Source of the DNA: Schmidtea polychroa
Lineage: Eukaryota
Direction of reading: 5' to 3'
Length of the DNA stretch: 64,000 nt
Assembly (NCBI GenBank): GCA_044892525.1
Contig: CM097885.1
Span: 20,152,001 to 20,216,000 of the forward strand
The position numbers and the translations under genes are program-made. Below are positions 242-48,127 of the stretch, piece after piece. Numbering within the stretch: the first letter of the stretch is position 1; the number at the start of each line of letters is the position of its first letter. The notes beneath the pieces were generated by a model, which was not told the DNA's origin, did not search any database, and worked only from the letters and a program-made list of their open reading frames with translations.

Positions 242-620
242 TTATTTCATTGACTTTAACCAAGCCAAACGATGTTGTCCACATGTTTTTGTTATAGGAT
301 TTTGGTAACGTATTCGATTGCATTCAATTGGCATTAACATTGATTGTAGTTTATTGATTAATATAGGTGGATAATAGAATCCCATTGGATCAAATGCATA
401 TATTTTGTTTGGTTTCACGTATACTGCAAGCCAATGTTCACCATTCAGATTAGCAGATTGAGTATTTACAATTATTGCTTTGTTGACATCTAAATAAGGT
501 ATTTTGTCTAATGGGAAAACACCTAGAAATTCTTTTCCTAGTAATTTTCTTCCGATAATATGTATCTGAATAGAACTAAATTAATAATAATTAAATAATT
601 TAAATTAATTCTTACTTCAT
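242..620 (-). CDS. Adenain-like cysteine protease (Polinton PRO), 112 aa, exons 620-616 and 575-242
   Basis: Manual translation: MNSIQIH...FLGVFPLD...IVNTQ..NGEHWLAV...AFDPMG...YQNP..KTCGQH, with the H/D/Q/C catalytic order. It is missing from the ORF track because the ATG is separated by a 40-nt GTAAG...TTTAG intron. Confidence 0.88.
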
Positions 621-654: not shown

Positions 655-1878
655 TTATACCAAAACAGTACGAGTAGATGTAATTTGAATTTCTTTTTCA
701 AAAACTCCATATACAATTACAGAAACAGCTTCAGTAAGTGAAGATGCGAATTTAATATCTAATCGCAAATTTCCACTTTGTGGTAACTGACTTTGATGAA
801 GATCAAAATCTGGTGCCAATACGAATGTAAAGAATGGATACTTGCTCTTAAAATCAGACATGGTGATACCACAATTCATATTTTTATTTAGATAACCCAT
901 ATTTCTAATAATTGATTGCATATAACTTGTACTATAATCATCATTCTCAAAATCTTGACTGTATTTTTCGCGATAATCACTTCCTTTACTTAAAGTTATG
1001 GACTTGACATTAAAGTGATCAAATATAGAAAATGATTCTGAAAACGATCCACTAAATCTTTTACTAGATTGAAATGCAACAAGAATAAAATTAGGTAGTC
1101 GTCTATCTCCAAATATTTGTTCTTTATAAAAAGAGGAAGAACCAATAGGTAATGAGAAATCAACAACTTCTTTGCTTCTTAAAGGATAAATTGCATTTTT
1201 TGTAGACAGACCAATTTGATGTCCTGCCAAAACCGATGGTTCAACACGAACTCTTCTAACCATTAATTTTGCGTCTAATAATAAAATTTTCGGTTCAATT
1301 TTCGCTCAAGTTAAACTAAGTGTTGGATTTGATCTTGTTAATTTAATTTGAACACTAACACCTGGTAGTAAATATTTAGGTTGATCAAAGAAATCAAATT
1401 GAAGTGGGGAACATAAAGAAAAGGATTTTAATTTTTCAATCCATGTTTTTCTCGTAAGATCTTTGTTAGTATACTCCATTCCACCTAAAGATGTTCGTTT
1501 AGTATCTCCGTCATAATTTATAAGTGTTTCAATTAATGCTTTGTGGGCAAATCTATCATTTGATCCTTCAACTTTGATTGAATTAAAAATTAATTCAACA
1601 TCTTTTAAAAGGGTTTGGAAGAAGAAATTATTTGGAATTACTTCTGATTCGCCTAAATTCTCACCAAAATTATTAACAACTTTCAATTGAATATATAACA
1701 AAGTATCATTCAAATCTAAATATTCAGTTTGCGATCCGTTTATGTAAAATTGAATCGAAGAAGAACCAGCATCTGTAATTGAATTTCTTGGGTATATATC
1801 TTCAAATGCTCCATGTTCAATCACTGCTTGGGGAGAAGGTCTATCAAAAAGACATAATTCTGATTTAGCACTAATCAT
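655..1878 (-). pseudogene. Major capsid protein (Polinton PY/hexon-like), ~407 codons, with one in-frame TGA at 1306-1308
   Basis: The N-terminus SELCLFDRPSPQAVIEHG and C-terminus GNLRLDIKFASSL..VIVYG are typical of Polinton MCP. The two ORFs share a frame: ...LSLT*AKIEPKFLLLDAKLMVRRV... Confidence 0.88.
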
Positions 1879-2273
1879 TTTTCAAAGATGGTACCATATC
1901 CTTTCATTCTTTTGTTTATATGTTTCTTCATAATTTTTCGGCGTTTAAGTATTCCACCTTTTTGTTCTTTATCATTTTTAAATACATCGGATACTTTATT
2001 AATTACTTCAGGTAAATGTTGCATCACTGCTGGTAATGATTCTTTAATTTCAGAAATTGCATTTGATTTTAAAGCAGGCAAGATATTTGCATTGTTATTT
2101 ATTACGTCATTAGCTGTTTTCATACCAAAATTTCCTATTCGTCTAAGAATTGGGAGTGCAAATCTACCTATTGTCTTCAACCAACCGGTTCCATATTGTT
2201 TACCAACAAAATATGGTAAATCACCACCCGATTGGTTACTACTATAAAAATGTATTATGTCAGGATTACTCAT
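1875..2273 (-). CDS. Small Gly-rich/amphipathic virion core protein (adintovirus pX/pVI-like) upstream of MCP
   Basis: Y..NQSGG..YFVGKQYGTGWLKTIGRFALPIL motif, a QKGG site and a basic C-terminus; lies between penton and MCP. Confidence 0.7.
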   Translation of the reverse strand: MSNPDIIHFYSSNQSGGDLPYFVGKQYGTGWLKTIGRFALPILRRIGNFGMKTANDVINNNANILPALKSNAISEIKESLPAVMQHLPEVINKVSDVFKNDKEQKGGILKRRKIMKKHINKRMKGYGTIFEK

Positions 2274-3282
2274 TTATTTTACGAAAATGTAATGTCAAGT
2301 ATGTTTTATCTTCTTTTCCAAATATATATTTTCCACTATCATCTCGTATATTGATTTCTATATTGTTTATATATGAAGACGATACAGGTAAGTACATTGG
2401 ATTCTTTTCAATTATTTGTACTAAATCATCTTTTTTATGTTTTTCCACCCAAATACATTTCAAAAGAGGGACCAATGTATCACCAACAATAATTGGTTCG
2501 ATAATATTTGTATAGATCATCAATTGTTGATTGCGTTGTAATACTTCAGGTTCTTTAAAACCAATAATAAGTTTGTCAGTATATGCTTCTTCTAATAATC
2601 CTAAACTATTGGCTAAAAATTTACTAAATTGAACTTTACTGACATCATCATCCATTACAATTTTAACGATTTTTCCTTTTTGAATATCAACAGATTTAAA
2701 TGGACGAGGATAAAAGGTTGATAGTTGATCATTTATTTGTGAAAGATCTGTTATGATATTTTCTTCGAATGTATCTGTAAACTCGACATCGTAATAATAT
2801 TGTATAGTTATTCGAATTGTATCAAACTTTATTTTTCGATTATTTGGAGGAATAGTGATTTTGTTCATTGTTTGCTTAAAAGTTATTTCTTTTTCTGAAA
2901 ATCCCAATTTTTGCGCTTCTTTAATACTATCGAATTCTACTTTAAAAGGAAAATATTTACAATTAATGTTCAATGTATTTCCATCAATATATATTAAATA
3001 AAATGGAGAGTCGTGACTGATTGTATATTCATTTTTTTCTTGGTTAAAGTAAAAGTATTCATAACTTGTATGTAATACACTTTTACTATATTTAACATTT
3101 GAATTGTTGTAAAAAGGAAAATAATTATACACAAAGGTAAAGTCCATGAGAGCTACTTCCCATTCACCATCCAAGTAAATAGGATTTTGAAATTCAACAT
3201 TAAATTTACCAGCTTCATTATTTGGATGAGTCTGAGGACAACTATTAGAAGGTAAATTCACATAAAAATCTTTTTTTATCAT
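2266..3282 (-). CDS. Minor capsid protein (penton), 338 aa
   Basis: FYVNLPSNS..THPNN..GKF...IYLDGEWEVAL N-terminus and IYTNIIEPIIVGD..VPLL..YLPV..INNIEINIRDDSG..LTLHF C-terminus. Confidence 0.88.
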   Translation of the reverse strand: MIKKDFYVNLPSNSCPQTHPNNEAGKFNVEFQNPIYLDGEWEVALMDFTFVYNYFPFYNNSNVKYSKSVLHTSYEYFYFNQEKNEYTISHDSPFYLIYIDGNTLNINCKYFPFKVEFDSIKEAQKLGFSEKEITFKQTMNKITIPPNNRKIKFDTIRITIQYYYDVEFTDTFEENIITDLSQINDQLSTFYPRPFKSVDIQKGKIVKIVMDDDVSKVQFSKFLANSLGLLEEAYTDKLIIGFKEPEVLQRNQQLMIYTNIIEPIIVGDTLVPLLKCIWVEKHKKDDLVQIIEKNPMYLPVSSSYINNIEINIRDDSGKYIFGKEDKTYLTLHFRKINE

Positions 3283-3405
3283 TTATTTTACGAAAATGTA
3301 ATGTCAAGTGTGTTTTTGTATCTCTACTAAATTTTATTAATTTTCCACTATCATCTCGTATATTGATTTCAATGTTGTTTATAGAAGAATTAGAAATTGG
3401 TACAA
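3245..3405 (-). pseudogene. C-terminal relic of a second penton paralog
   Basis: FVPISNSSINNIEINIRDDSGKLIKFSRDTKTHLTLHFRKIN aligns to the last ~40 aa of the intact penton. Confidence 0.8.
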
Positions 3406-4119
3406 AACATTTATCCAAGTTTTATTACCTTGATATACAAAATATTTTTTCAAACGTTCTCTTAAAGTTTGATTAAATCGTTCTACATGAGCAGCTTTGA
3501 ACTGAGAAAATACTGAGTAATGGTTTATTCCTTTGATAACCTCTTTAACTTTGCTGTTATAAAATTCTTTACCTAAATCATATATTTAAAAATTAATTAA
3601 TTAAATTTAATTACCTAAATCCGTTTGTAAATTAATAGGTTTAACATCTGCAAACATTTCTTTTATCGCATCAGCCATTTCATTTGCAGATTTAGTTTTT
3701 GTAGGAACAGCACGAGCATATCTATTAAAAACATCTATACAAGTCAGAATATATTTGTACCCCTTGTTAATTTTTGAAGAAGGTATCATTTCCATCAAAT
3801 CCATTTGCCATACATCATTGTTTCCAATTCTTTTGTATGGTCTTGTTGGAAAACGTTTCAACATTGGTTTATTTAAACTATATGCTAATTGATTAGATAA
3901 CCATTTCTGAGTTTCTTTCTTTGAATTATTCACTCGTTTTGTTAATTTTTCTACGCCACCAAAACCATCTGGATCTTTTGGGTTTGTCCATATTGTTTTT
4001 AACTTTTTCTCTATTGTTTTCACTTTTTTCACTTTTGTTTTCATATTTTTCACTTTTGTTTTTACTTTTGTTTTCATTTTTTCCACTTTTGTGTTGGTTT
4101 TGTGATACGTTTCCTTCAT
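3400..4119 (-). pseudogene. Retroviral-like (rve) integrase; exons 4119-3615 and 3572-~3400; 3'-truncated by deletion
   Basis: WQMDL, YILTCIDVFNRYA, and after removing the 42-nt intron QTDLGKEFYN...KAAHVERFNQTLRE (D,D,E intact). The reading ends at TWINVL, fused to the penton relic. Confidence 0.88.
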
Positions 4120-4188: not shown

Positions 4189-4512
4189 TTAAGAACTTAA
4201 TGATGAGATTTCACTAATTGCAGATAAGACTATAGGAATTAGTCCACCCAAGAACCCTCCTTTTTTATATATTATCTTTCTCATTAGACGACGATTTTTT
4301 GTATCAACTAGAGATAAAAGTGATCTTTTATGTCTTTGCAATATTAATCTTTTAGCTTTAGTTATATTCACATTACCACGGACAACATTTATAATAACTT
4401 CAAGTAAATCATCAATAACAAATGATGGAAAAGACTGTAAAAATGATATTCGTTCCGAATTTGGTGCCTTTATTAAAGCATTAAAATATGGTAAACTCCG
4501 TTCAAATTTCAT
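4189..4512 (-). CDS. Conserved small Polinton/adintovirus protein with a C-terminal GGFL amphipathic tail (~107 aa from ATG 4512)
   Basis: N(V)VRGNV...LQRHKRSLLSL...KGGFLGGLIPIVLSAI pattern, lying between ATPase and integrase. Confidence 0.7.
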   Translation of the reverse strand: MKFERSLPYFNALIKAPNSERISFLQSFPSFVIDDLLEVIINVVRGNVNITKAKRLILQRHKRSLLSLVDTKNRRLMRKIIYKKGGFLGGLIPIVLSAISEISSLSS

Positions 4513-4541
4513 TATTATTATTAATTTACGCGACGGATTGT

Positions 4542-4682
4542 TTATAATTTGATCCACTTCTTGATTTGTTTCTTAGTTTTTGTACTTTTTGTACTTTTTG
4601 TTTTCTTTGTACGTTTTGTTTTCTTGGTAATTTTCTTCGAAACACTTGGAAGATTTTTAACAACTACTTTTTTAAATGACAT
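4542..4682 (-). CDS. 46-aa Lys/Thr-rich basic micro-ORF (possible DNA-condensing peptide or internally deleted gene)
   Basis: Manual translation MSFKKVVVKNLPSVSKKITKKTKRTKKTKSTKSTKTKKQIKKWIKL*; it fills the gap between flanking genes. Confidence 0.4.
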   Translation of the reverse strand: MSFKKVVVKNLPSVSKKITKKTKRTKKTKSTKSTKTKKQIKKWIKL

Positions 4683-4701: not shown

Positions 4702-5325
4702 TTAGTTTTGTTTATAAATCGTAACACCGTTTATATTAAAAATATCAGTTCTAATACGCATATCATCTGGACATTGTTGTGTAAAATCAAAAAATAAATA
4801 TCCATGAGGAATTTTTGTCGCATCTTGGAATGAATCAATCAAAAATTTTCTATTATTTGGATAAGCTTGTCTTGCAAGAAAATCTATTATTGTTTGATCT
4901 CTAGGATTTTTGAAAATAATTAAATATTGGACATTTAAATTACGTGTTCTATGACTTCCACCTTGATGAAAAAGATTTTGTGTAATGAAAATAACTGTAA
5001 CTCCACAATGTCTACTGATTTTTGTAAATAAATTATTAAAATCTTTTTCTTTATTTGCTTCCTGGTACAGATCATCGATAATAATAACATCACCTTGGCG
5101 TAATCTAGATGACCAATTTTTATCAAATCCTTTAATTATTGTCATTTTTAATTTACAGAAACTGTTTTGAGTCAATTCATGTTCTTCATCTGCACCTCGA
5201 TGCCAATATATTTTATTAAATTTAGATTTAAACATGTTTGATTGTAATAAATTACATACAAATAAAGTTTTCCCGCTTCCACTAGGTCCTACAATTTGAT
5301 ATACTGCGTCATTTCTTAATTCCAT
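4702..5325 (-). CDS. FtsK/A32-like DNA packaging ATPase
   Basis: Walker A GPSGSGKT, Walker B IIIDD, SRH and ITQNLF motifs, PHGYLFFD. Confidence 0.93.
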   Translation of the reverse strand: MELRNDAVYQIVGPSGSGKTLFVCNLLQSNMFKSKFNKIYWHRGADEEHELTQNSFCKLKMTIIKGFDKNWSSRLRQGDVIIIDDLYQEANKEKDFNNLFTKISRHCGVTVIFITQNLFHQGGSHRTRNLNVQYLIIFKNPRDQTIIDFLARQAYPNNRKFLIDSFQDATKIPHGYLFFDFTQQCPDDMRIRTDIFNINGVTIYKQN

Positions 5326-5375
5326 TTTTTAATTAAATTATTTTATTTAATTTGTTTATAATTACAATAAGTAGA

Positions 5376-5852
5376 ATGATCAGCAACATTAATTATAGAG
5401 GAAGATGTGTAGTAAATGGAATGAAGTTCCCATCAGGAAAACCTCAACATGTTGTGGACAGAAGTGGAAAATATCCAATTTTATTCTTCAAGAGCGGGAA
5501 ATGTAGGATAATGGGATGTAAGAAACCATTACAGGAAGGTGATCTCAAATATCAGATTCAAGATTTACAAATCCAATCAATTACATTAACGCTAGATATG
5601 GGTACATGCATTGATTTAAATGCATTGTCAAGGAAAACCGATAGTTACTACGAGCCTGAAATATTTCCAGCTTTACGTATTCTCAAGTATAACCCCCTAT
5701 GTGTAAATGTTTTTTCAAGTGGGAAAGTTGTTATATTAGGGATTAAAACATTTGATTATTTTAATCAAATTCAAGAAATTCAGAAATTCATTAAATCATT
5801 AACTATAAATATCACAACAAATGAAGAAATATTGGAATATTTATTAAGTTAA
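5376..5852 (+). CDS. TATA-binding protein (TBP)-like protein, intronless, element-borne
   Basis: Two TBP repeats: ILFFKSGKCRIMG and LQIQSI..LD....IDLNAL..SYYEPEIFPAL....P..VNVFSSGKVVILG. Confidence 0.85.
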   Translation: MISNINYRGRCVVNGMKFPSGKPQHVVDRSGKYPILFFKSGKCRIMGCKKPLQEGDLKYQIQDLQIQSITLTLDMGTCIDLNALSRKTDSYYEPEIFPALRILKYNPLCVNVFSSGKVVILGIKTFDYFNQIQEIQKFIKSLTINITTNEEILEYLLS

Positions 5853-5915: not shown

Positions 5916-6263
5916 ATGGATGACGATAAGCAAGCTTACATATTCCAGACTATATTAACAAAGATGGAAGAATTGTTCCCGAATATAAAGAACAGACTTT
6001 CGTATTGTGCTCCGGAATTATTAGCTTAAAGAATCAAGCAATTAACGGGGATCAATATAGAAGAACTTATACGACGACATTACGAATCTGTACAAGAATC
6101 AAGATTTAAATGCATAGACGATTGTGAAGTATGTATGGATTCGATGAAATTACCATGTCCATTTAGATGTAGATGCTGCCAAGAATATAAGATGAAAGAA
6201 GTTGTTCATATTTTACTAGCAGAATTAAGAAGAGCTTATTACAAGCAAATATTGGATGAATAA
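5916..6263 (+). pseudogene. Cys-rich ~115-codon ORF with an in-frame TAA at 6027
   Basis: Manual translation MDDDKQAY...ELLA*RIKQ...CIDDCEVCMDSMKLPCPFRCRCCQEY...ILDE*. Confidence 0.6.
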
Positions 6264-6505: not shown

Positions 6506-6689
6506 CATAAAAATTTCCATCTAAAATTTGTCTTTGAAAAATATTTCATAAAAATTTCCATTAAAAATTACCATTGAAAAATAATTCATTAAAATTTCTA
6601 TTAAAAATTACTTAAAAATTATTTCATAAAAATTTTCATTAAAAAATTTCAATTCTCAAACACCTTCAACTTTTTGTAATTAAATTTTA

Positions 6690-7880
6690 AAATCTTACTT
6701 TAATTTACTTTAATTTACTTATTTAAAATTTTTTACCATTGATTACTTAATTTAAAAATTATTACTTTAATTTACTTATTTAAAATTTTTTACCATTGAT
6801 TACTTAATTTTAAAATTTGGACCATTATTTACTTAATTTAATTTTTAGAATCATAATTTACTTTAATTTAATTTTTAGAACCTAAATTTACTGTAATTTA
6901 AAAATTTGAGCCATAATTTACTGTAATTTAATTTTTTAGAACCATTATTTACTTTAATTTAAAATTTTTGACCATAATTTACTGTAATTTAATTTTTTAG
7001 AACCATTATTTACTGTAATTGAAAAATTTGGACCATAATTTACTGTAATTCAAAATTTTTGACCATAATTTACTGTAATTTAATTTTTTAGGACCATTAT
7101 TTACTTTAATTTAATTTTTAGAACCATAATTTACTGTAATTCAAAAATTTTGACCATAATTTACTTTAATTGAAAAATTTACCACGTTTTTTAGTGTAGA
7201 CCACCTTTTTCTCAGGACCAAGGAGACCCACCTTAATTTAATTCGAAAAATGCATGCTTTTTTTAGTGATAGTCGGATTTTTGTATTGAAAATATCCTGA
7301 GACCTTAAATTACCATGCTTTTTTATTGAAGACCGCCTATTTGTATTGAAAATATCATGAGACCTTAAATTACCATGCTTTTTTAGTGTAGACCACCTTT
7401 TTGTATTGAAAATATCCTGAGACCTTAAATTACCACTCTTTTTTTAGTGTAGACCACCTTTTTGTAATGAAAAAAATTTTTTGTATTGAAAATCCCGGGA
7501 CCATCGAGACCCCCTCGCTATAGTGACAAAATTCCATGATTTTTTATTGAGACCGCCTTTTTTGTATTGAAAAAAATTTTTTGTATTGAAAATCCCAGGA
7601 CCATCGAGACCCCCTCACTATAGTGTGAATAATCCATGCTTTTTTATTGAAGACCGCCTTTTTCTATTGAAAAATTTTTTTTTGTATTGAAATTCTCAGG
7701 ACCATCGAGACCCACCTCACTATAGTGTGAATAATCCATGCTTTTTTATTGAAGACCAGCTTTTTGTATTGAAAAATTTTTTTTGTATTGAAAATCCCAG
7801 GACCATCATTTTTGTATTGAAAAAAATTTTTTGTATTGAAAATCCCAGGACCATCGAGACCCCTTCACTATAGCGTGAAA
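6690..7880. repeat. Polinton subterminal tandem repeat arrays (~30-bp ACCATAATTTACTGTAATT units, then ~60- and ~110-bp GTATTGAAAA...GAGACC units)
   Basis: Repeated units read directly; adjacent to the element terminus. Confidence 0.85.
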
Positions 7881-10369
7881 AATTGCGTAATAAAAAAGTT
7901 GCCGCAAAAAAAAGTTGCCGCAGACCCCCCCCCCCGGGGGGGTAATTGCGGCAGCGGGCCACTATCTACCTACTTTCTTTTATATTATTTTTCGTCCAAT
8001 CAGGACACGATTTGTTTGTAATTTTATTATTTATTATTATTTATATGTTTTTTATTATAATATACTGGATTTTAACGACCTTACTTATTTTTTATTATTA
8101 TTTTATTATTTTCTTATTTTTTATTGTTTTTCTCTTATTTTCCTATGGATTTATTACCATTTTGTTGTAATATAATTTTTTTTGTTTTAATTATTCTACG
8201 CATTTATTTAGGAATGGTTTTATTTTTATTTTATTTCATTAATTTCTCGTTTATTTTTCTTAAATTTTTGCTATTTTATTTTCCTTTTATTGTTATGCTT
8301 ATTGGGTAATTTCCTTTTGTCCTATTTTTCATCTTAAAAGTTTTATTATTTTATTAGTTATTCCTATCTCTTTTATTGTTATTTGATTTGTTTATTCCTA
8401 TATTTCTATGTAGTTTTCTGTAAAATTTATTTTTATCTATTCTATTCCTTTGTGTGGTCCCTTTTCTCATCCTTGACTCGATTTTCAACACTTTCAAAAC
8501 TTGGCCCAACACATCAAAGTATTTAAAATAAATTAGTTTTTACTGATAAAATCTCATTGAGGTTTTCGTTATATACATAAAATAATACAAAGATTCTCCT
8601 TTGGAACTAAATTCAATTCAAAACATTCATTCAGAACTTCGGCAATTTCTTCATAATATTTGTCAGTATATTATAAATTCGCCGACTTTGGAATCGTTTG
8701 GTTGGTTTGTCACACTAATCTTATAGCCATTATTGTTTATAACTTCCAAATTAGATTCAAATCCCAAAACCTGTGAACTATTTGTTGATTCATCATGATT
8801 TTTTCGAGTTAGTATTTAGATTATCATTTGTATTATTCTGTAAGTCAGTTGTCTTTACAAAATCGGATAACTTTTGATATAACATGTTTTGCATATTGAA
8901 AGATTTATATATTGAATTACTTGATGAATTCACTTTAAAATTCATATTTACATAACTCTAACCAATTTGCCATTTTGGAAAATTACATAATATGCAATAG
9001 CATTAGGAAAATCAATATTCACAACCATATAAGATTTATATAGATTTCGATAAGACCGTTTAACGGCTCACTACTGTTTATATATACAAAATTTTGATGC
9101 CCTTCCACGCATAGTTCTGAGAATTTAGACTGGCAGCGCACACATTATCGAGTATTGCTTGACTTGCTAATTTTCTTTTAAATTGAGTTGAATTTTTTAA
9201 AATTATTTTATATTCAGTACAAGCGCCCATGATTTGTCACTCCTATCGCGCATTCTATTGATTATTTTAAACAATCAATATATTTATTAATTTAATTTTT
9301 GGTTAATATTTTATTAATTTAATTTGGTCGAAGAAAGATAAGTAAGGAGAATCTCAGAAAATCCGGCGATTAGTGATCAGAAATAGTAATCTAGCAATTC
9401 AAAAAAGGTGTAAGACTCGTACCAGAAAATGGGATTGCCCCTTGGGTTTTCTACCTTAACAAGCCAAAATTGTTTTAAGCGAAAGGTGCAAATAGTTACA
9501 AATTGTAATTTGATTGAAATTAAATAAAATTATTCTGTGTTGGGTTTCAATTTATTTGGTTGAATAAGAACACGAGGAGTCAGAGAGAGAACCGACTTTC
9601 AAAATAAAAACAGGGTTGTTCACAGAAATTTCGAGGATTAATTTACCACTTTTGTTGTCATTTGTGATTCAATTCTATTTGCATGAATAAAAATTGGAGT
9701 TTCTATGTAGTCTTAGCCTTTACCTTCTCCAACAGTTACATTGTAAAAATAGGCCATGTTTAAGGTGCTTCTTGCTTCTTTTAAGATTTTTTAATTGTAT
9801 AATGATTTCGATCAATTGGTGTTTTGTGGTCGATAATAGTATATTACTCTCGGGATTTCATGGAAATTACTTAGTTTTACTTTACCTAAATCCCGGGATT
9901 TTCTTTGTGATAATATTTATTCACATGTTGGCAAGAATCCAAGTTAAATTTACTACTTTTGCACAAAATTCTGCTGCAAAAGAAAATAATTGGGATAATT
10001 TCAAGTGACCCACTTTAGTTCCGAAAATAAAGTATAAGATATACAAACATTTTTTTCTTTTTCCCAAAACATTTTTGTCGCAAAGTTATGAACGTACCAA
10101 AATAACATATACCAGTATAACATATAAAAATATCAATTAAAGCCCACCCCCACCTGACCTGATATAGAATCGGCCGATAGTATGTAGAATGCAGCAACAT
10201 GTCCGAATAAATTGTACCATTCCTGTAAACGCGCATAATCATTTTCTCATGATATCAACATGTTGGGCATCACTTCCTACGAGGTTGTCATCATTAAAAA
10301 AATTGGCTTTGCCATTTTGTCCACATTCAGGTCCACTTATAAATTGAGCAAATATTTTCACAAATGAAA

Positions 10370-12668: not shown

Positions 12669-48127
<35,459 letters not shown>

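Follow-up and report, generated by a model that had tools for sequence, protein, structure and literature searches.

A TBP-like gene of Polintons in Schmidtea polychroa and a candidate promoter box of their putative late genes

Analysis of a 64,000-nucleotide stretch of the Schmidtea polychroa genome (contig CM097885.1, positions 20,152,001 to 20,216,000; hereafter, the window) revealed a Polinton gene for a protein with a predicted TATA-binding protein (TBP) fold, an old constituent of these elements and not a retrocopy of a host gene. Judging from sequence, we consider it fairly probable that the product is an element-specific early TBP, which likely binds an 8-bp box with the consensus YATAAACR and likely recruits host TFIIB and RNA polymerase II (Pol II) for a late class of genes, those for packaging, the integrase and the putative capsid proteins. 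With regard to how Polinton virion genes are expressed, and to whether there is any regulated productive cycle, a dedicated factor with a defined 8-bp box would be an argument for virus-like behaviour of these elements, including a late programme.

Gene content and copies of the element

The preliminary description of this locus reported an intact, intronless TBP-like ORF inside a Polinton, head-to-head with the ATPase gene across about 50 bp of AT-rich DNA. This was borne out: the ORF (5376-5852, + strand) is open and intronless over 158 aa and matches the Pfam TBP family (PF00352, residues 64-130, E 3e-16), and the spacer is exactly 50 bp long with 92% A+T (Table 1). All 35 PDB sequence matches of the ORF were TBPs or TBP fusions, and the motifs YEPEIFP and FSSGKVV are both present.

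The PolB gene of the window copy lies outside the window. In a sister copy (L038/L039; G000:C1:1839425-1840600), a 1429-aa ORF matches pPolB (PF03175, E 1.4e-30), and there is a 1301-bp inverted match at 96.7% (long terminal inverted repeats ending in AG...CT) along with a target duplication of 6 bp; together, these identify the element as a Polinton/Maverick. The Pfam scan of whole PolB proteins returned only an Endonuclease VII piece, and the PolB assignment is that of the PF03175 match. The Polinton core genes are represented by the rve integrase, the A32 ATPase and the C5 protease, the last through its homolog in a neighbouring element, which matches Peptidase_C5. In size and position, the putative major and minor capsid proteins are compatible with the double and single jelly-roll capsid proteins of Polintons. 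A distant homolog of the putative major capsid protein has a weak Capsid_N match (E 0.007), and a PDB sequence search with the putative capsid protein gave no meaningful match; likewise, nothing usable was obtained for the Cys-rich 115-aa ORF in Pfam, PDB or Atlas. The window copy is defective, with the integrase and the putative capsid gene fragmented.

Table 1. Features of the Polinton in the window (positions are those of the window)
Feature	Position	Strand	Remarks
Cysteine protease frame	242..580	-	No ATG-started ORF of at least 80 aa in the window copy
Putative major capsid protein	655..1878	-	Named from size and position; two pieces in the window copy
Conserved 132-aa ORF	1875..2273	-
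Box	1913..1920	-	Within the 132-aa ORF; 42 bp before the ATG of the putative major capsid gene
Putative minor capsid protein	2266..3282	-	Named from size and position; no family match
Box match	2364-2371	-	98 bp upstream of the 132-aa ORF
Box match	3376-3383	-	Upstream of the putative minor capsid gene
rve integrase	3379..4119	-	Broken in the window copy; no box before it here
107-aa ORF	4189..4512	-	Weak adenovirus pX-like tail (E 6e-4, under the cut-off)
Box	4539..4546	-	34 bp before the pX-like ORF
Small Lys/Thr-rich ORF	4542-4682	-	About 46 codons
A32-like packaging ATPase	4702..5325	-	Open; Pox_A32 match, E 6.5e-7
Box	4709..4716	-	34 bp before the Lys/Thr-rich ORF ATG; second match at 4728-4735
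Spacer	5326..5375		Between the ATPase and TBP-like start codons
YATAAACR box TATAAACA	5353..5360	-	35 bp before the ATPase ATG, inside the spacer
TBP-like ORF	5376..5852	+	158 aa; predicted strands-only N-lobe, complete C-lobe (ORF, Pfam, structure model)
Cys-rich ORF	5916..6263	+	3' of the TBP-like gene; interrupted by a stop here; other copies encode 115 aa
Right terminal inverted repeat region	6600..7974		Start approximate; internally repetitive

Several further observations concern copies and relatives of the element. Immediately upstream of the window, a second-family Polinton has apparently been inserted into the element of the window between the PolB pieces and the protease (L032:3489 to L031:9696); this second Polinton has a TBP-like gene of its own (154 aa), in head-to-head orientation to its ATPase gene. 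The window's family (L039:1462-2487 and 453-1469) and L061 (5616-7687) each have a tandem pair of putative minor-capsid paralogs. In L033 (G000:C3:102799000-102808999), two partial copies are arranged as mirror images with the break inside the putative capsid gene, and, judging from several opposite-strand copy pairs separated by about 10-13 kb, palindromic derivatives seem to be common. TBP-like genes also occur in tandem arrays with spacings of about 4.0 kb and 670 bp (G000:C1:213934011-213946540, C2:189539036-189541522 and C21:221806-222952). Accessory genes of related elements (L061:222-719, L096:3994-4398, L096:13312-13893 and L107:7052-7912) encode a ubiquitin-conjugating enzyme, a phospholipase A2-like protein, a RING finger protein and KilA-N; the phospholipase A2-like gene carries an upstream box. 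Elsewhere in the window, going by sequence appearance, we take 18228-22436 (- strand), with a 142-bp direct repeat at 17859 and 22425, to be an LTR retrotransposon-like element, whereas 27880-29135 (- strand) is presumably a piggyBac-like transposase gene and 12669-13076 (- strand) presumably a host membrane-transporter exon.

Distribution, ancestry and selection

Searches of the genome yielded 4206 candidates at the protein level and 1145 at the DNA level, which are numbers of candidates and not of copies; all 150 candidates scored from the former search had an identity of at least 99% (149 of them free of stops), and the 40 scored from the latter were at 99-100%. At least four divergent element families of the genome carry a TBP-like gene (154-170 aa) head-to-head with the ATPase gene. 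Furthermore, the TBP-like gene adjoined the ATPase gene in 18 of 18 loci of the same genome that were selected by similarity to a divergent ATPase alone. On the practical side, the more than 1000 element-borne TBP-like matches in this genome are a possible source of confusion for TBP annotation and for reference-gene primers.

Outside this genome, one search returned 123 database relatives of the TBP-like protein, and 114 proteins, including a few canonical TBPs, were found at E <1e-10 in a set of representatives at 50% identity. Among 79 metagenome loci, 35 have a Polinton core gene nearby and 13 more have only a linked 139-aa gene, the rest comprising one weak ATPase match, 5 canonical-type TBPs and 25 short contigs without a match. 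The ATPase gene is co-directional with the TBP-like gene in 22 of the 24 metagenome loci with a clear ATPase and divergent in 2 (L114, with a weak opposite-strand ATPase match, was left out of this count and of the ATPase promoter set), which rules out the 50-bp head-to-head layout as an essential trait of the family. In some other elements, the TBP-like gene is placed after the protease gene. Scans of viral contigs turned up 5 distant ATPases, no capsid relatives and, in the TBP scan, one canonical-type TBP (L041).

The 139-aa gene is conserved and adjoins the TBP-like gene in either orientation, at L031:7435-7854 and in 21 of 80 metagenome or viral loci; in some loci, it seems to be spliced. 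We take the C-terminal strand pattern of its product to recall OB-fold ssDNA-binding proteins; Pfam, PDB and Atlas searches gave nothing usable.

The TBP-like gene is under purifying selection, with dN/dS of 0.10-0.39 in all 15 pairs compared, the deepest of which approach saturation of dS. A quick tree of 89 rows, in which the cellular-type rows include six host TBP pieces and from which the partial S_L075 was left out, had a long branch (SH-aLRT 99) between 54 element-type proteins and 35 cellular-type ones, and a single clade of four element families and three host TBP pieces was rejected (p-AU 4e-42, 36 rows). A recent retrocopy of a host TBP, or a neutral passenger, might be suspected from the intronless gene and from the several host TBP paralogs, one of which has both repeats in a single 212-codon frame. 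However, protein identity to the host TBP pieces is 23-49% over partial matches, no DNA match exceeds 22 bp, and neither the 123 relatives nor the purifying selection is consistent with this reading, the probability of which we consider negligible; a recent retrocopy is refuted by the 89-row tree, the dN/dS values and the rejected host clade. The preliminary description had named absence from other copies, together with clustering as a recent host retrocopy, as the outcome that would speak against it. The gene is present in other copies and does not cluster with host TBP, which supports that description, although the capture of a basal factor that it proposed stands only as an ancient event preceding a wide radiation of Polintons. 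On the host side, we observed at least six TBP-like loci (L121-L126), some of them divergent and two (L125 and L126) without several of the usual DNA-facing residues, as well as, on C1 and C3, numerous TFIIB-like frames with a length of about 300 codons.

Predicted fold, DNA face and candidate promoter box

The first repeat of the TBP-like protein, undetected in the Pfam scan, matched canonical TBPs from about residue 26 in a profile-profile comparison (Prob 99.6). The AlphaFold model based on a 91-row alignment (pLDDT 95) has a predicted two-repeat saddle with a concave beta-sheet, and its residues 1-147 match human and yeast TBP (1cdw, 1ytb) with Z 12.7 and rmsd 2.4-2.5 over 145 aligned residues, the next unrelated row reaching only Z 6.8. 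The two repeats originally proposed are thus real. The first had also been called shortened, which is correct in that both of its helices are missing from the model but not as regards its strands, which are kept: residues 1-61 are predicted to form four strands and no helix, helices are absent from the model up to residue 80, and the second repeat is predicted to be complete, so that the two helices per repeat expected for PF00352 are not found. A longer Polinton-linked group (165-173 aa) is predicted to retain both N-lobe helices (Z 18.6, rmsd 2.2 and 164 aligned residues), and its DNA face is already altered. With the tree rooted on the cellular side, these long forms suggest that the DNA face was altered first and the helices were shed later; the short-form clade, which includes three unplaced rows, is moderately supported (SH-aLRT 90). 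In TBP, the contacts of TFIIA, TAF1 and Mot1 centre on N-lobe helix H2. The helices form the convex surface that is reported to be bound by TFIIA, TAF1-TAND2 and BTAF1/Mot1 (PMC3142196). The predicted helix-less lobe raises the question of which parts of TBP are required for TFIIB and Pol II loading.

Residue conservation was counted in 91 aligned relatives, with equivalents given in yeast TBP numbering. Of the intercalating Phe residues and the TFIIB stirrup, which the preliminary description had singled out for modelling, three of the four Phe are kept (F38 in 90, F97 in 90 and F113 in 91 relatives), the first being Pro in 90 of 91, and the acidic C-terminal stirrup is, at the level of sequence, kept as well (E93 in 87, with Asp in 4, and E95 in 90). 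The retained yeast equivalents are N69, F116, F190, F207, E186 and E188. Replaced DNA-facing positions are P23 (90), R44 (89), M46 (91), S68 (88), T70 (84), R101 (90), C109 (91) and N111 (91). In yeast terms, the N-lobe has Pro for F99, Asn for V71, Arg for V122 and Met for T124, and the remainder of the protein has Ser/Thr for N159, Thr for V161, Arg for I194, Cys for V203 and Asn for L205, each replacement being present in 84-91 of the 91 relatives. The central Asn pair is thereby reduced to N69, and the hydrophobic DNA face is altered, with Arg for V122, Met for T124 and Asn for L205. The second repeat, initially described as canonical, is so in topology, stirrup and Phe pair; it is not canonical in its DNA-facing residues, since these are replaced almost invariantly. 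Thus, the predicted fold is that of TBP, yet three defining features of TBP (the helices, the four Phe and the DNA face) are not kept.

R101, C109 and N111 correspond to yeast I194, V203 and L205, the three positions mutated in TBPm3, a mutant with changed specificity (PMC1636458); the family is a natural experiment on TBP, in which these specificity positions have been replaced under selection. The 3' half of the TATA box is reported to be read by the N-terminal half of TBP (PMC1636458), the Phe pair of which inserts between base pairs 7 and 8 (PMC3142196), the site at which YATAAACR has its C. The C-terminal stirrup is reported to hold half of the TFIIB contacts (PMC10005294).

The spacer (5326-5375), for which a gel-shift assay had been suggested, contains the box on the ATPase strand, and this box is kept in 30 of 30 copies (L001-L030). 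In the first 8 kb of the window, all 8 box matches lie on the structural-gene strand, at 34-42 bp before four start codons; in the other 56 kb, there are 18 matches, 13 of them on the structural-gene strand. The Lys/Thr-rich ORF (4542-4682) may be a real basic core protein gene, given its own box 34 bp upstream.

We counted ATAAAC within 90 bp upstream of genes in elements picked by their TBP-like gene, with expectations from dinucleotide shuffles and after removal of near-duplicate upstream regions (at least 8 shared 12-mers). Among these elements, which are related, so that the counts are not independent events, the motif was found upstream of 22 of 22 ATPase genes (1.8 expected), 11 of 11 putative major capsid genes (1.0 expected), 9 of 10 pX-like, 9 of 11 putative minor capsid, 11 of 16 integrase and 4 of 5 protease genes and 2 of 7 132-aa ORFs, the shuffle expectation being 0.3-1.8 per late-gene class. 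On the antisense strand, it occurred in 1 of 82 late-gene regions (1 of 75 without the 132-aa class). At the ATPase genes, the distance from ATAAAC to the ATG is 31-37 bp in 19 of 22 cases. T or C precedes the motif in 62 of 65 sites and A or G follows it in 62 of 65; these preferences define the consensus YATAAACR, that is, a TATA box with C at position 7. Some box sites fall within the coding sequence of the preceding gene, where codon conservation may partly account for them. At the TBP-like genes themselves, ATAAAC is not enriched (5 of 49, 3.1 expected), whereas canonical TATAWAWR is found in 23 of 49 (6.2 expected). TATAWA at 25-50 bp precedes 23 of 43 short-form but only 1 of 6 long-form genes, and the TBP-like gene of the window's family (L039 row) has no canonical TATA within 90 bp. 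ATAAAC precedes 0 of 5 PolB genes and 3 of 13 139-aa genes, the starts of which are uncertain. A PolB family search for a Polinton without TBP as a control for the box, covering 12 stretches around five matches, gave two gene-bearing elements and no complete gene-less one, and neither the 18 loci selected by ATPase similarity, all of which have the gene, nor the viral contigs supplied such a control.

The box might instead be a host Forkhead site or the poly(A) signal of the upstream gene, in which case the late genes would depend on a host factor. The Forkhead consensus is RYAAAYA, which ATAAACA fits, TATAAA and CATAAA are poly(A) variants, and the genes are tightly packed. The ATAAAC core is, however, strand-specific and fixed in position, and GTAAACA, the usual Forkhead form, was found in only 1 of 82 late-gene regions, so that we give this explanation a low probability. 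For the box in the spacer, the poly(A) reading was rejected, because in this head-to-head arrangement the ATPase strand has no same-strand gene upstream.

It is also rather improbable, in our view, that the protein binds DNA in a non-transcriptional role, such as bending or single-strand binding at the termini during replication or packaging, with the box being unrelated. Such a role would be compatible with the loss of one intercalating Phe and one central Asn, with the frequent adjacency to the ATPase gene and with the reported preference of the divergent Giardia TBP for ssDNA (PMC12209930), but it does not account for the three retained Phe, the TFIIB stirrup (E95 in 90 of 91 relatives) or the location of the box at a TATA-like distance from start codons.

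The preliminary description proposed that the protein either redirects host Pol II initiation or acts as a decoy. The retention of the stirrup, the replacement of the DNA face and the presence of a matching box would fit redirection. In the decoy version, the box would be a weak TATA read by host TBP/TFIID, and the element protein would act as a decoy or repressor, for instance, by sequestering TFIIB or occupying AT-rich promoters. Cellular TBP can indeed use a similar box, as TATAAACG retained 27% activity in plant protoplasts (PMC10005294, Table 4), and a TBP structure exists on the C(-25) AdMLP variant (1qn3). The conserved TFIIB stirrup would be compatible with a decoy, the paralog TLF/TRF2 is reported to repress by TFIIA sequestration (PMC3142196), and EBV BcRF1 to bind TATA and TATT alike in vitro (PMC4893493). 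Nevertheless, we regard a decoy as unlikely: it leaves unexplained the fixed C after ATAAA at 22 of 22 ATPase genes as against the canonical TATA at TBP-like genes, and it fits less well with the nearly invariant new DNA face, which a decoy would not need.

Under the reading that we favour, an element-specific TBP acting at YATAAACR, the TBP-like gene would be expressed early from a host-type promoter by host TFIID, as suggested by the canonical TATA that about half of the relatives have. The C-lobe (F97, F113) would kink the 5' end of the box, and the N-lobe, rewired by Pro in place of the first Phe and by Arg and Met on its last strand, would lie over the non-standard C7; the acidic stirrup (E93, E95) would dock TFIIB, and Pol II would start some 30 bp downstream, shortly before the start codons of the genes nearest to the box. 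The loss of the N-lobe helices would remove the surfaces for TFIIA, TAF1 and Mot1/BTAF1, so that the protein may work outside TFIID and its inhibitors. If this is correct, the purified protein should prefer YATAAACR over TATAAAAG and random AT-rich DNA, and a preference for C7 should be apparent for TATAAACA compared with CATAAACA, TATAAAAG and position-7 variants. For the wide Polinton clade as a whole, the case appears to us evenly balanced for a one-protein early-to-late switch, in which TBP was re-faced to YATAAACR and then lost its helices, evading control by TFIIA, TAF1 and Mot1 while still loading host TFIIB and Pol II. If real, this switch would be simpler than any other known viral late-promoter system; it would parallel the herpesvirus vTBP independently and would provide a natural orthogonal TBP-promoter pair.

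Relation to known systems

With cellular TBP, the element protein shares the two-repeat saddle, the C-lobe topology, the YEPE-x-FP stirrup, Phe at yeast F116/F190/F207 and N69. It differs in the predicted absence of the N-lobe helices, in Pro at F99, in the replacement of V71, V122, T124, N159, V161, I194, V203 and L205 and in size, the element proteins being typically 144-160 aa long compared with a core of about 180. TRF2/TBPL1 and the Giardia TBP are likewise TBP relatives with lost intercalating Phe; however, Giardia TBP lacks three of the four and has a preference for ssDNA, and TRF2 lacks TATA binding, whereas the element family keeps three Phe.

The element resembles other Polintons/Mavericks (adintoviruses) in the pPolB, rve integrase, A32 ATPase, C5 protease, long terminal inverted repeats and, in the sister copy, the 6-bp duplication, but their core set does not include TBP. 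For some polintoviruses, VLTF3 has been reported as a transcription factor (PMC11131425). Among the papers listed in searches on Polintons, Mavericks and adintoviruses (outside subscription journals, Repbase and bioRxiv supplements), no title or abstract opening describes a Polinton TBP with its own box; the terms TBP, TATA and promoter are absent from the accessible text of PMC11131425 (with one supplementary file), PMC11161782 and 10.64898/2026.06.19.733378. A precedent among mid-size linear dsDNA elements comes from Starrett et al. 2021, whose Fig. 5 legend, in the section on non-animal datasets, has the abbreviation 'TBP' for elements with adintovirus-like PolB (PMC8502044; preprint 10.1101/697771). 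The figures may or may not already mark the family of the TBP-like gene in the window, possibly under an 'Adintoc' name. The main text of PMC8502044 has one mention of TBP and nothing on helix loss, DNA face or a promoter box, and no match was found in one supplementary text file.

Nucleocytoviricota (for example, Heterosigma akashiwo virus, Mimiviridae, asfarvirus B263R) also encode proteins with the TBP fold, with a best Foldseek E of 2e-8, but identity is at most 21% among the matches listed, which name no Polinton model. Many Nucleocytoviricota encode their own RNA polymerase.

A functional parallel is provided by the herpesvirus vTBPs (EBV BcRF1, KSHV ORF24 and HCMV UL87), which are likewise viral TBP-like proteins associated with a non-canonical TATA at structural genes, a canonical TATA at early genes and the use of host Pol II, the last presumed in the case of the element. 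The TBP-like protein of beta- and gammaherpesviruses with its TATT late box thus sets a precedent (PMC4893493; PMC7498053). The herpesvirus proteins, however, are large, recognise TATT and work in a multi-protein viral complex, whereas the element protein is a bare core of 158 aa with a kept TFIIB stirrup and a different box, with the core ATAAAC, and would be a functional analog only; its model matches that of BcRF1 with only E 0.02. As candidate partners in a viral late complex, the neighbouring 139-aa and 115-aa ORFs gave no usable family, PDB or Atlas match. A viral TBP for late genes is a kind of system already known, probably represented here not by a member of the herpesvirus vTBP family but by an old, selected Polinton gene with a matching putative promoter element.
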